Assembly (NCBI GenBank): GCA_963701965.1
Contig: OY969695.1
Span: 2,688,001-2,752,000, forward strand
Source: an uncultured Gemmatimonadales bacterium
GTDB lineage: Bacteria > Gemmatimonadota > Gemmatimonadetes > Gemmatimonadales > Gemmatimonadaceae
Length of the DNA stretch: 64,000 bases
Direction: 5' to 3'
The notes under the pieces are model-generated. The model searched no databases. It had not been told where the DNA came from and saw only the letters and a program-made list of their open reading frames with translations. Shown one piece after another: positions 34,360-45,231 of this stretch. How positions within the stretch are numbered: position 1 is the first letter of the stretch; each line of letters opens with the position of its first letter. The translations under genes were made by a program, and so were the position numbers.

Positions 34360-34386
34360 TTGTGGATGTCCACAACCTGTGCACAA
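34360..34386. promoter_or_regulatory. DnaA-box-like palindromes between ku and the dnaA paralog
   Basis: TTGTGGA-TG-TCCACAA (34360-75) and TGTGCACAA (34378-86, reverse complement TTGTGCACA). Confidence 0.6.
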
Positions 34387-35411
34387 AATCCGGTGTGCTC
34401 AACCCCAATTACACGTTCGCCCAGTTCGTGATCGGCCCGTCCAACGACATAGCCGCGGCGAGCGCCTCGGCCGCCGCCGAAGCACCAGGCCGGGCGTACA
34501 ACCCGCTGTTCATCTACGGCGACACGGGCCTCGGCAAAACGCACCTCATGCACGCGGTCGCGCACGCGGTGATGGCGCGCCAGCCGGCGACGCGCGTCGT
34601 GTGCGTGTCGGCGGAGCGCTTCACCAACGATCTCGTGGCATCCATGCAGCAGATCGCGCTCGAGGCGTTCCGCCTGCAGTACCAGACGGCCGACATGCTG
34701 TTGATCGATGATGTGCACGTGCTCGCGGGTCGGCGCGCCGCGCAGGACGCCTTCGCCGAGACATTTCGGGTGCTGTACGAGCGGGGGCGGCAGATCATGC
34801 TCACGTCCGACCGGGCGCCCCAGTCGTCGGGGCTCGATGCCGAGTTGGTGGGACAGTTTCGCTGGGGGCGCGTCGCCAATGTCTCGCGACCCGATGTCGA
34901 GCATCGGTTGGCGATCCTGCGCGCGAAGATCGGGACGGGTGCCCACGGAGCGCTGCCGGACGATGTGCTGCTGTTCTTGGCCGAACAGGTCCACACCAAC
35001 GTGCGCGCGCTGGAAGGGGCCCTCGTGCGCCTCGTGGCCTACGCGTCGCTCACCGGGCGGCCGGTGACCCTGGCGCTGGCCCACGAAGCGCTTCCGCTCG
35101 CTGCCGCCGCAGGGAGGGAGACGGCGGCGCCGGATGCCTCGGCGGTCACGCGCCGGGTGGCCGCCGAGTGGGGGGTGACGCCAGAGGCCCTGGCCTCGAA
35201 ACGGCGTACCCGGGAGATCGTGGAGCCCCGCCAGGTGGCGATGCATCTCTGTCGTGAGCTATTGGGCATGACCCTCACGGACATCGGTGCCGCATTCGGT
35301 GGGCGCGACCACTCGACGGTGATACATGGGCTGGAACGCGTGCGTGATGCGATGGCCTCGAACCCCGCATTTTCCGGCCGCATTCAGCGCATCGAAGCGG
35401 CGCTCAAGTAG
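34362..35411 (+). CDS. dnaA: DnaA paralog, domains III-IV only (start possibly GTG 34395)
   Basis: LNPNYTF..FVIG, AYNPLFIYGDTGLGKTHL, LLIDD, NVRALEGAL, PRQVAMHL, FGGRDHSTV. No room for domains I-II because ku starts 35 nt upstream on the other strand. Confidence 0.9.
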   Translation: MDVHNLCTKSGVLNPNYTFAQFVIGPSNDIAAASASAAAEAPGRAYNPLFIYGDTGLGKTHLMHAVAHAVMARQPATRVVCVSAERFTNDLVASMQQIALEAFRLQYQTADMLLIDDVHVLAGRRAAQDAFAETFRVLYERGRQIMLTSDRAPQSSGLDAELVGQFRWGRVANVSRPDVEHRLAILRAKIGTGAHGALPDDVLLFLAEQVHTNVRALEGALVRLVAYASLTGRPVTLALAHEALPLAAAAGRETAAPDASAVTRRVAAEWGVTPEALASKRRTREIVEPRQVAMHLCRELLGMTLTDIGAAFGGRDHSTVIHGLERVRDAMASNPAFSGRIQRIEAALK

Positions 35412-42503: not shown

Positions 42504-42613
42504 ATGCGCTATACGTGGAGTGTCGGGACACGGGCGAGGAGACCGTACGGATCATTTCCGCGCGAAAGGCGACGCGGTTGGAACGGAGCGCGTATGAAGA
42601 CAGGCTCAGGTAA
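42504..42613 (+). pseudogene. brnT: BrnT toxin remnant (internal deletion)
   Basis: MRYTWS start, then in another frame RDTGEETVRIISARKATRLERSAYEDRLR*, the BrnT C-terminal motif. Confidence 0.8.
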
Positions 42614-42953
42614 GGGTCGTGGGCGGCCGGTCGCGCAACCTCGAGTTGCGCGCGAACTGACGGCGTCCCAGCGGAGGGAGCTGTCGTTTCTAGCCACGCT
42701 TCCCGATGAGTCGATCGACCTTTCGGACGCGCCCGACGTTGCCAACTGGACGTCGCCGGTGGTGGGCCGGTTCTATCGCCCGATCAAGGAACCGGTGACG
42801 CTGCGGATCGACGCCGACGTGTTGGCCTGGCTGAAGGCGTCTGGCCCCGGCTATCAGACGCGGATCAACCGATGGCTGCGGACTGCGATGGAGACAGAAG
42901 GCGCGCGCGTGAAGCGTTCTGTCGCGAACAGGAGCGGCCGCGCGCGACGCTAA
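42594..42953 (+). CDS. brnA: BrnA-family antitoxin
   Basis: IDLSDAPD, FYRPIKEPVTLRIDADVLAWLK..GPGYQTRINRWLR. Confidence 0.9.
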   Translation: MKTGSGKGRGRPVAQPRVARELTASQRRELSFLATLPDESIDLSDAPDVANWTSPVVGRFYRPIKEPVTLRIDADVLAWLKASGPGYQTRINRWLRTAMETEGARVKRSVANRSGRARR

Positions 42954-42957
42954 CGCG

Positions 42958-44469
42958 TCAGGTCGACGCCCAGAGATGTTGCGCCGCGTACGCGCGCCAG
43001 GGGCGCCAGGCGTGGGCGCGATCGAGCAGCGCCGCGGGGGTGCGGTCGAGGCCCTCGTGCGTCGCCATGACGCGCATGAGTCCTACGTCGGCGGCCGGGA
43101 ACGCGTCGGGTTCGCGCAGTTGGCGGAGCGCGATGTACTGCGCGGTCCATTCGCCGATGCCGCGGATCGACCGGAGGCGACGGACGGCGTCTTCGAGTCC
43201 CGCGGTCGCGTCAAACAGGTGCGGATCGGCGACGGCGGCCGCGGCGAGCGCCGAGACGGTCGCGGCGCGGCTCCGCGGCATGCCGAGACTCGCGATGTCG
43301 GCACCGATCAGCGCGTCGGGTCGCGGAAAGACGCGGGTGAGCGCGCCGTCCGGCTCGGCCAGCGGCGCGCCATAGGTCGAGACGAGGCGCCCGGTCAGGC
43401 GGCGGGCGGCCGTGAGCGTGATCTGCTGGTGGAGCACGGCGCGGATGGCGAGCTCGAACCCGTCCCATCCGCCGGAGACGCGGAGTCCCGGGCGCGCCTT
43501 GACGAGCGGCGCGAGCGTCCGGTCCTTCGAGAGATGCGCGCCGATCGCGACCGGATCGGCCGCGAGATCGAATACGCGGCGGAGCCGCGCGATGATCGCC
43601 GGCAGCGCAGGAATCCCGGTGACGCTTCGCGTCGCGTGATCCGGGGTCGGTTGGACCGATCCCGGCCAAGCCGGGATCATTGGGAAGCGGACCGTGGCCC
43701 GCAGCGCGTTCTTATCGGCCAGCTCGACGGTGACCGTTCCCTGGGCCCCATCGAGATCGATCGATCGCGTGTAGCGGTCCGCCGTGACGTGCTCGATGCC
43801 GGGGATGGCGCGCCGGCGGAGGTGTTCGATCATCGCCGGCCAGTCGTACGGCGGCTGATAGCGGAGCAGGAGCGCGATCTCCCCGCGCGGTCCGATCGCG
43901 CCGTCGGGTGTGCGGGTGCGCCGGAGCATGCCGGGCGATCGGCCGAAGAGCGTCGCGAACGTCTCATTGAACCGTCGGACGCTCTTGAACCCCGCGGCGA
44001 ACGCCACGACGCCGAGGGGCATCCGCGTCTCGTGGATGAGTTGTTTGGCGAGGAGGACGCGGCGCGTTTGGGCGACGGCGATCGGCGAGGCGCCGAGGTG
44101 TTCGCGGAAGAGGCGCCGGAGTTGGCGTTCGCCGACTCCAAGCCGTTCGGCGAATCCCGCGACGTCCGCTTCGTCGAGCGCGCCGTGCTCGATGAGCGCC
44201 AGGGCGCGGGCGACGGTGCGGGACGTCGTCCGCCACGCGCCCATGTCGGGCGCCGTCTCCGGCCGGCAGCGGAGGCAGGGGCGGTAGCCCGCCTCTTGGG
44301 CCGCGGCGGCCGTTGGGTAGAACACGACATTCTCCGGTCTCGGTGTGCGGGCGGGGCACGTTGGGCGGCAGTAGATGCCGGTCGTCTTGACGGCCGTGAA
44401 GAAGCGGCCGTCGAACCGCGAGTCGCGCAGCGCGAGCGCTCGAAAGCAGGCGTCGTGGTCGAGATCCAT
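42958..44469 (-). CDS. alkA: Ada Zn-binding/AraC + AlkA DNA-3-methyladenine glycosylase
   Basis: RDSRFDG, TGIYCRPTC, RPCLRCRPE, FELAIRAVL.QQI, GIGEWTAQY, DAFPAAD, WRPWRAYA; 21-aa insertion. Confidence 0.95.
   Translation of the reverse strand: MDLDHDACFRALALRDSRFDGRFFTAVKTTGIYCRPTCPARTPRPENVVFYPTAAAAQEAGYRPCLRCRPETAPDMGAWRTTSRTVARALALIEHGALDEADVAGFAERLGVGERQLRRLFREHLGASPIAVAQTRRVLLAKQLIHETRMPLGVVAFAAGFKSVRRFNETFATLFGRSPGMLRRTRTPDGAIGPRGEIALLLRYQPPYDWPAMIEHLRRRAIPGIEHVTADRYTRSIDLDGAQGTVTVELADKNALRATVRFPMIPAWPGSVQPTPDHATRSVTGIPALPAIIARLRRVFDLAADPVAIGAHLSKDRTLAPLVKARPGLRVSGGWDGFELAIRAVLHQQITLTAARRLTGRLVSTYGAPLAEPDGALTRVFPRPDALIGADIASLGMPRSRAATVSALAAAAVADPHLFDATAGLEDAVRRLRSIRGIGEWTAQYIALRQLREPDAFPAADVGLMRVMATHEGLDRTPAALLDRAHAWRPWRAYAAQHLWAST
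43613..43678. mobile_element. 63-bp in-frame palindromic element (RPE/MITE-like), copy A, inside alkA
   Basis: 60/66 nt identical to 44723-44788; ATC at both ends 63 nt apart. Confidence 0.8.
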
Positions 44470-44501
44470 ACGGAATAGTCGCCGGGGTGCTGGCCCAAAA
44501 C

Positions 44502-44566
44502 TAGCGGATTTCGGACACTGACATTCGGCGGCGTTTTCCCTCGGAGTTGGCGTCCGAAAACCGCCA
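44502..44566. promoter_or_regulatory. Inverted pair of candidate Ada-binding motifs
   Basis: TAGCGGATTTCGGAC (44502+) and TGGCGGTTTTCGGAC (minus strand, 44552-66). Confidence 0.5.
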
Positions 44567-44619
44567 ACTTTGCCGAATTCACCAGGCATGTTTCGGGACC
44601 ATTCTTTTGGGAGTGCATC

Positions 44620-45231
44620 ATGCCGGTTTCCGCATTTCATCTCGAGCGCGTCGGGACCCCGACCGGGCCGTTTCTCATCGTCACCGATGACGAAGGGCGC
44701 CTGCGGGCGGCGGAGTGGGAGGATCTCGGCGACGCTCCGCGTCGCGAGATCCGAGGTCGGTTGGACCGATCCCGGCCGAGCCGGGATCTCGCGCATCGCA
44801 TGCATCGGTCGCTGCGCGTGCCGTACGGGGAGCGGGTCGAGTTGCGGCCGATCGCGGCGCCGTCGGCCGCTGCCCGGGCGCTGGAAGCGTATTTCGAGGG
44901 CGAGCTGGAGGCGGTCGGTGTGCTACCGACCTCGACGAATGGGACGGAGTTTCAGCGCGCGGTGTGGGATGCGTTGCGGCGGATTCCTGTCGGCCAGACG
45001 ATGAGCTATAGCGGCGTCGCGCTCGCGATCGGGCGGCCGACGGCGACGCGCGCCGTCGGACTGGCGAACGGTTCGAATCCCATTCCCATCTTCGTGCCGT
45101 GTCACCGCGTGATCGGCGCCAACGGGTCGCTCACCGGGTTTGGCGGCGGAATCCATCGCAAGCGGTGGCTCTTGGCCCACGAGCGGGCGCTCGTGGACGA
45201 GCAGCACTCGCTGTTGGTTGGCGCGCGGTAA
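44620..45231 (+). CDS. ogt: Methylated-DNA--protein-cysteine S-methyltransferase
   Basis: GTEFQRAVW.ALRRIP.G, RAVGLANGSNP, VPCHRVIG, KRWLLAHE; 21-aa insertion. Confidence 0.94.
   Translation: MPVSAFHLERVGTPTGPFLIVTDDEGRLRAAEWEDLGDAPRREIRGRLDRSRPSRDLAHRMHRSLRVPYGERVELRPIAAPSAAARALEAYFEGELEAVGVLPTSTNGTEFQRAVWDALRRIPVGQTMSYSGVALAIGRPTATRAVGLANGSNPIPIFVPCHRVIGANGSLTGFGGGIHRKRWLLAHERALVDEQHSLLVGAR
44721..44791. mobile_element. 63-bp in-frame palindromic element, copy B, inside ogt
   Basis: Direct repeat GGATCTCG at 44721-28 and 44784-91; internal hairpins. Confidence 0.8.

Follow-up and report, generated by a model that had tools for sequence, protein, structure and literature searches.

A genus-restricted double-hairpin repeat lies in frame in alkA and ogt of an uncultured Gemmatimonadales bacterium

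The DNA analysed here, called the window, is a stretch of 64,000 nt from the genome of an uncultured Gemmatimonadales bacterium (GCA_963701965.1, contig OY969695.1), a single contig of 5.12 Mb rated 95% complete and referred to below as G000. It holds two divergent repair genes, alkA and ogt, each containing a 63-nt hairpin-forming unit that is read in frame (Table 1). As a preliminary description of this DNA had stated, the two genes share one element: positions 43611-43678 and 44721-44788 of the window align in the same orientation with 61 of 68 nt identical, both copies are open in the frames used, and the peptides are those given there. The ogt copy is open in its frame because GGACCGA replaces GGACTGA, the commoner form. 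The Ada cysteines, the FPAAD motif and the PCHR motif of Ogt are all intact in the sequence; we assume that they have their usual roles, PCHR being the active site.

Table 1. Features of the alkA-ogt region, in window coordinates
Feature	Position	Strand	Remark
Ada-AlkA fusion gene (Ada Zn domain, AraC helix-turn-helix, AlkA_N, HhH-GPD glycosylase)	42958..44469	-	503 aa, against 482 in most homologues
63-nt unit in alkA; minus-strand reading gives residues ~265-285 (IPAWPGSVQPTPDHATRSVTG)	43616..43678	+	predicted low-confidence loop at the AlkA_N strand-helix junction
alkA left junction word GAATC, imperfect RGATC	43611..43615	+	putative host target, judging by empty sites elsewhere
ogt, O6-methylguanine-DNA methyltransferase, 203 aa; PCHR intact at 160-163	44620..45231	+	
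63-nt unit in ogt; plus-strand reading gives 21 extra residues in the N-terminal domain	44726..44788	+	
Hairpin A, ogt copy; bulged stem that takes in the left GGATC junction word; sequence variable, covarying	44721..44752	+	
Linker GTCGGTTG(G/A)AC; conserved, unpaired, family signature	44756..44766 (alkA copy 43646-43656)	+	
Hairpin B; 9-bp stem closing in the unit's own GATC	44768..44788 (alkA copy 43658-43678)	+	
8-bp direct repeat GGATCTCG at ogt, right copy	44784..44791 (left copy 44721-44728)	+	ogt locus only

The 119 best homologues of Ogt all have 14 residues where the protein has 35 here, and the 119 best homologues of AlkA all have 18 where it has 39. Because both sets lack exactly 21 residues, the inserts are not ancestral loops, an explanation that the preliminary description had named as fatal to its proposal. 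An assembly artefact is unlikely, since the two copies differ from each other and the element has relatives in five further assemblies and on nine metagenome contigs. In an AlphaFold model of AlkA (56-row alignment, mean pLDDT 83.6) the insert is predicted as a loop between a strand and a helix, with pLDDT <50 at residues 267-281, and the modelled fold stays intact; the single-sequence model of Ogt (mean pLDDT 39) was unusable. The 21-residue loops that the units would add are likely harmless passengers. The closest relative of the alkA copy is the ogt copy (57 of 63 nt); the ogt copy is equally close or closer to three others (58-59), so we regard a direct hop between the two genes as possible rather than indicated. 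Within the pair (window 42958-45231), alkA shares 72-78% identity with proteins of other groups, of which some are named Stellaceae, and about 40-46% with the homologues of congeners, which suggests horizontal acquisition of the alkA-ogt pair before the element entered it.

The two inserts belong to a large family. A combination of hidden Markov model (HMM), covariance-model and motif searches over the whole genome found 99 units at 63 loci, of which 14 are tandem arrays, in agreement with the high copy number that had been surmised from the two hits. The covariance model alone gave 89 matches in G000, and nhmmer at E<0.2 gave 90 in the genome and none in the reversed genome; hence the signal is not due to chance. 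Four weak HMM matches and one mis-anchored row (3742229) were dropped before the 63 loci were counted, and 3-5 out-of-register loci were left out of the identity, stop and flank counts. One tandem array (G000 2249755-2250220, about seven units of 66 nt), which combines the GTCGGTTG linker with other hairpins, was entered in the census as a single unit.

The element occurs in all six genomes of the genus, with 7-64 matches in each of the five congeners, and in 1 of the 138 other genomes of the family, where there are two weak matches. A search of GTDB with an exact pattern matched four contigs, each with Gemmatimonadales or Gemmatimonadaceae in its title. We obtained no match in the plasmids, phages and viral contigs searched, and none in Rfam at gathering score (three sub-threshold matches are attributable to chance). 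The literature searched, which included few subscription papers, contained no description of the family. Its designation as undescribed thus holds for the libraries and papers covered; the family is real and apparently uncatalogued, akin to repetitive extragenic palindromic (REP) sequences and Rickettsia palindromic elements (RPEs).

The family unit consists of a bulged and variable hairpin A, the unpaired linker GTCGGTTG(G/A)AC and hairpin B. Two-sided changes affect 12 of 14 pairs in hairpin A and 6 of 9 in hairpin B (39 copies), and 95.7% of the cells of hairpin B are paired in the same alignment. Overall, 20 of 27 pairs change on both sides, a count that is inflated by kinship among the copies and was reached in 0 of 500 shuffles; the fold is therefore kept while the sequence turns over. 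Of the three hairpins originally described, the middle one, GGTC/GACC, is no feature of the family: its outer pair is broken in 18 of the 39 copies, and its inner three pairs show one two-sided change in all. The 11-nt linker is nearly invariant across the genus, although the stems turn over. Many copies in relatives have a third hairpin upstream.

In 33 of the 46 clear cases, the hairpin B loop is C-GNA-G when read on the reverse strand, and in no case is it so on the forward strand; the alkA and ogt copies carry variant loops. PMC13037366 describes GCGNAGC as an exceptionally stable, DNA-specific mini-hairpin found at priming sites on single-stranded DNA (ssDNA), and by this analogy the polarity of the loop may be a sign that the unit acts as ssDNA. 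Two comparisons with other mobile DNA were tried and rejected. An IS5/IS1182-like mini-element as hairpin A of the older copies was dropped because its motif was found only within the family. An integron attC site was likewise set aside: a single GTTRRRY-like word lies in the linker, and no inverse core was seen by eye upstream in the flanks.

We split the loci by end sequence into a GATC-ended group, called young, and the rest, called older. The young group comprises 25 loci and 48 units with 86% mutual identity over linker and hairpin B; the older group comprises 38 loci with 64%. According to gene calls made with our own codon model and three manual corrections, 19 of 25 young loci lie within genes, against 3 of 38 others (Fisher p 3e-8). 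All 19 are in frame, 16 of them internal and three near N-termini, where the start is uncertain. At 24 of the 38 older loci the 5' foot is CTAG or TTAG, and 25 of the 38 overlap or abut a called stop codon; among CTAG words in G000, 27% are inside called genes and 23% at stops. The copies of relatives (42, counted in the loci fetched and not among all matches) lie in genes in only three cases, which speaks against coding as a design feature of the element, as had been proposed. The rare in-frame copies in relatives are in a TROVE protein, a histidine kinase and an oxidoreductase.

Besides AlkA and Ogt, the hosts of young copies include pyruvate kinase, HisH (two units), a PIG-L deacetylase (two), Lhr (two), a SNF2-like helicase, VirD4 (two), PaaD, an ABC ATPase (seven), ImuB (four) and a TMEM260-like protein. 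At all 10 of the 19 in-gene young loci that were compared with orthologues, the site is empty elsewhere, so that the host gained one or more whole units. Apart from alkA and ogt, the genes compared were those for pyruvate kinase, HisH, the PIG-L deacetylase, Lhr, the TMEM260-like protein, the ABC ATPase, ImuB and VirD4, each set against orthologues from congeners; the orthologues of HisH and VirD4 differ in length at the insert site. The ABC ATPase (G000 2605630-2607573), empty in congeners, carries seven tandem units plus 12 nt, which would add 151 residues immediately ahead of the Walker A region. In imuB (2274465-2276188) four tandem units are read in the ogt frame; 18 nt past them, a C-run holds one C too many and the frame shifts, through either a sequencing error or a real break. 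The nearby dnaE2 is likewise called as two fragments, with another gene between it and imuB.

The junctions of young copies define the target. All 20 registered copies have GATC as their right word, where it forms part of the hairpin B stem, whereas an exact GATC stands on the left in 12 of 20. Where it can be checked, the left word matches conserved host codons (TMEM260-like gene, W-E-T; lhr, E-I; ABC gene, G-S). The base before the left word is a purine in 18 of 20 copies, and the one after the right GATC is a pyrimidine in 23 of 25 (background 37%). As the left word is often inexact and matches the host, and as these flanking bases are preferred, the target is, judging from the junctions, RGATCY-like, and the "duplication" is mostly the likeness of the target to the unit's own end. 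The insertion at GATC-containing sites claimed in the preliminary description thereby stands. Its 8-bp direct repeat GGATCTCG is real at ogt and does not extend to the family, where the junction repeat is a 4-6 nt RGATCY-like word (GAATC/GGATC in alkA).

[quoted passage not shown] Many young copies do read GATC-YCGGC...GCCGR-GATC, a short inverted repeat (imperfect, 5-9 nt) within a palindromic 4-bp repeat, and G000 has candidate sources: multi-copy repeats that we take, from sequence features, to be IS3-, IS21-, IS256- and IS30-like, three IS110-family matches and one IS4/5-family fragment. However, a terminal inverted repeat is missing from the older copies, the left word is host-derived and inexact as often as just described, the right GATC is part of a hairpin, and the host sequence at the TMEM260-like site is GAAACC, which contains no GATC that could be duplicated. 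DDE MITEs do not usually form head-to-tail arrays with a single shared GATC. The ends of the multi-copy insertion sequences (IS) differ from those of the element (other, single-copy IS families lay outside this search), the element model found nothing better than E 0.06 around the seven IS110 and IS4/5 loci, and PF13751 (IS1182-type) is absent from G000. We therefore consider a classical MITE improbable.

The target word also accounts for the reading frames. RGATCY sites fall in genes in 85% of cases and the element in 76% (19/25; p 0.26), and the element uses the three frames in the ratio 12:6:1 where RGATCY sites are distributed 56:38:6% (p 0.82). Because both quantities match those of the sites, in-frame residence needs no selection beyond the 63-nt length and open frames. 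The unit is stop-free on both strands, as first described, in the frames that are used; more generally it is not, since among 21 young copies a stop interrupts forward frame 0 in 8 and forward frame 1 in 7. The copies read in the ogt frame (ogt, imuB) both have the stop-free variant. A selective preference for one strand in genes and an opposite preference among intergenic copies (15 of 25, p 0.42) were both considered and rejected.

One could still suppose that the element is retained as a functional RNA or DNA signal acting on mRNA stability, on translation or on the joint control of alkA and ogt, in line with the role in the adaptive response that the preliminary description had imagined. 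The unit folds stably on both strands (z -3.4 to -4.6), older loci gather at stop codons, repair genes recur as hosts (alkA, ogt, imuB, lhr), and in-gene copies are read from the reverse strand at 18 of 22 loci (p 0.004). This last bias is, however, not significant once stops in the forward frames (often TGA) are allowed for (4/19 forward-read copies observed, 39% expected, p 0.16). Furthermore, the alkA and ogt mRNAs bear opposite strands of the unit, none of the 119+119 homologues has it, Rfam offers no family at gathering score, the loop has the polarity of a DNA hairpin, and the hosts extend to pyruvate kinase, HisH, the ABC ATPase, VirD4 and helicases. We give this explanation little credence.

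Young copies are clustered: their median nearest neighbour is 15 kb away, compared with 73 kb for random GATC sites, and nearer copies are more alike (Mantel p 0.027). Local hopping, one of the options raised by the preliminary description, agrees with these signs. On balance we lean towards the view that a non-autonomous repeat of two hairpins, restricted to the genus, is the family of which the alkA and ogt inserts are young copies. It would likely move as ssDNA, likely with the help of a dedicated hairpin-recognising enzyme that acts in trans, and settle as a probably neutral passenger at RGATCY-like words. A protein would recognise the linker and hairpin B on one strand, and the unit would be pasted beside a word resembling its own end; tandem arrays would then grow by slippage between short direct repeats. 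The GATC-ended subtype would yield in-frame peptides without selection, given a unit length divisible by 3 (63 nt), mostly open frames and the location of 85% of RGATCY sites within genes; older copies, by contrast, are found at CTAG or TTAG words and stop codons. The two hits 1.1 kb apart would reflect spread near the replication origin, perhaps aided by the fact that repair genes are known to be tolerant or exposed. The double hit on alkA and ogt is best read as the local spread of a passenger rather than as regulation.

Several observations weigh against this view, among them the failed search for a mover. PF01797 (Y1_Tnp) is absent from G000 and the four congeners tested, NF047646 (REP_Tyr_transpos) from all six genomes of the genus, and a small GIY-YIG gene from G000, G002, G003 and G005, the only GIY-YIG matches in G000 being frames of 615 and 510 aa. 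No transposase or nuclease family occurs among the 105 + 64 proteins neighbouring copies. The junctions are not always clean: at lhr, a host-like duplication of about 27 nt accompanies 69-nt units; at virD4, 15 nt are identical to the unit's end; there are 12 extra nt in the ABC gene and a unit shortened by 3 nt at 2439127. Guide-like pairing of the target is not established, own left flanks pairing with the internal arm at 4.80 of 7 positions and swapped flanks at 4.56 (p 0.08, n=20). As for proximity to the origin, 15 of 25 young loci are no more than 400 kb away from dnaA, whose position matches those of the GC-skew minimum and parAB, and this distance window was picked after inspection of the data; the forward strand of the unit is on leading-strand sequence at 18 of 25 young loci (p 0.043), a weak bias that is absent in older copies (18/38). 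Finally, the gene calls are our own, and age instead of target may explain the contrast between young and older copies, given their different mutual identities: older in-gene copies may have been purged.

Further candidates for the mover gave as little. Two Y1 loci of genome G023 and the short GIY-YIG loci of genomes G023 and G001 showed no match to the element model; DUF559 gave a single weak match, in a 1644-aa frame; and a search for Y2_Tnp returned nothing, its controls being silent as well. An inverted pair at 339250/340736 of G000 flanks ordinary genes. The absence of a mover of these named families from G000 is likely, though not certain because the genome is rated 95% complete; the enzyme may have been lost, be transient or belong to an unrecognised family.

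Alternatively, no dedicated enzyme is involved, and it is host replication or repair that copies the unit to RGATCY sites in the vicinity when stalled forks switch template, helped by short end homology. The lack of any mobiliser in six genomes would then be expected, as would the strong clustering and the nearness to the origin, the tandem arrays at 14 of 63 loci, the long microhomology or host duplication at the lhr and virD4 junctions, and the inverted remnants that follow two arrays. The lhr locus (G000 2478529-2478670) looks like the product of a template switch, to judge from its two 69-nt units in which hairpin A is partly duplicated host sequence (ASMRAARREI / ASTRAARREI). Because of these irregular junctions at lhr, virD4 and two arrays, host template switching is favoured at least for array growth. 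As a general account we hold it rather unlikely: most insertions are exactly 63 nt and retain all host codons, and the 11-nt linker is near-invariant genus-wide, which suggests recognition by a protein. It is because this linker is invariant though unpaired, and because unit length is exact, that a dedicated protein is favoured. Bolder and quite tentative is the possibility that a few changes of the ends from CTAG to GATC retargeted a stop-codon-hugging repeat into coding DNA near the origin, where it would have given at least 19 proteins 21-residue loops, single or in arrays of up to seven; the mover would be either a process of host replication or repair or an enzyme that acts on ssDNA and belongs to none of the families tested (Y1, GIY-YIG, DDE).

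Known repeats offer partial parallels. RPEs are palindromic repeats found in frame in many Rickettsia genes (PMC10969869, PMC3733652). The present family shares with them residence in frame in unrelated genes, a recurring peptide, intergenic copies and a mobiliser that is not evident, and the RPE-like mode of insertion proposed at the outset is upheld. It differs in that its unit is 63 nt rather than ~150 and has two hairpins with a linker, is read in five of six frames rather than as one conserved peptide, forms in-gene arrays of up to seven, and has a free-living, high-GC host and no CGTC-tagged hairpin. Kinship with the sequences of RPE-1 to RPE-10 is lacking, the pattern being found only in Gemmatimonadales records of the GTDB genomes.

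GTAG/CGTC REPs provide TAG stops and have intragenic copies, often in DNA repair genes, that encode 20-30 residues (PMC3733652; see also PMC3184786). Our family resembles them as a set of lineage-restricted hairpins near gene 3' ends, with TAG-supplying termini, coding copies and a presence in repair genes, and it is REP-like in the general sense of being lineage-restricted and mostly extragenic (35 of 38 older loci, 39 of 42 copies in relatives). Unlike REPs, its units lie head-to-tail and not as inverted dimers, have a defined RGATCY context and lack a REP-associated tyrosine transposase (RAYT) in six genomes. No RAYT (Y1) gene flanked by repeats was found in the genomes tested, and a GT(A/G)G guide 0-2 nt 5' of the foot of hairpin B occurs at 0 of 63 loci on the forward strand and 1 of 63 on the reverse. 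With the SRM/NTS repeats of Ssn nucleases, the family shares a short hairpin plausibly recognised as ssDNA, hairpin B being like their GC-rich stems (PMC11893778); a small GIY-YIG gene was not found in G000, G002, G003 and G005, and all 63 loci lack the SRM consensus motif as given in that paper. IS200/IS605 peel-and-paste elements and their non-autonomous derivatives (PMC6006769) likewise have two subterminal hairpins, insertion by a host word like their own end, no strict duplication and a weak replication-strand bias. The differences here are that no Y1 transposase was found, that the unit is only 63 nt long and that guide pairing falls short of significance (p 0.08).

Some features of the surroundings are recorded for completeness. 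Adjoining alkA, a region of short open reading frames (ORFs; window 42592-42953) looks by eye like a BrnT/BrnA-type toxin-antitoxin pair. The window also contains a 349-aa DnaA-like ORF without the N-terminal part (34362-35411; TIGR00362 above cut-off); the full dnaA is at 2642875 of G000, and a tandem-domain DnaA-like protein is at 593-594 kb. Just upstream of parA/parB lies a 240-bp inverted repeat pair with internal palindromes (2612434-2613130), a different repeat.

RPEs and intragenic REPs have already provided examples of in-frame palindromic repeats, repair genes included, and the phenomenon itself is therefore not new. The present case contributes a single family seen in both states: extragenic throughout the genus, and coding in the one lineage in which a GATC-ended subtype has expanded. 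In its share within genes and its use of frames it equals its target word, an argument that peptides of this kind may come about without selection. The linker, the GNA-loop hairpin and the RGATCY target together provide a sharply defined substrate with which to seek the mover of REP-like DNA.

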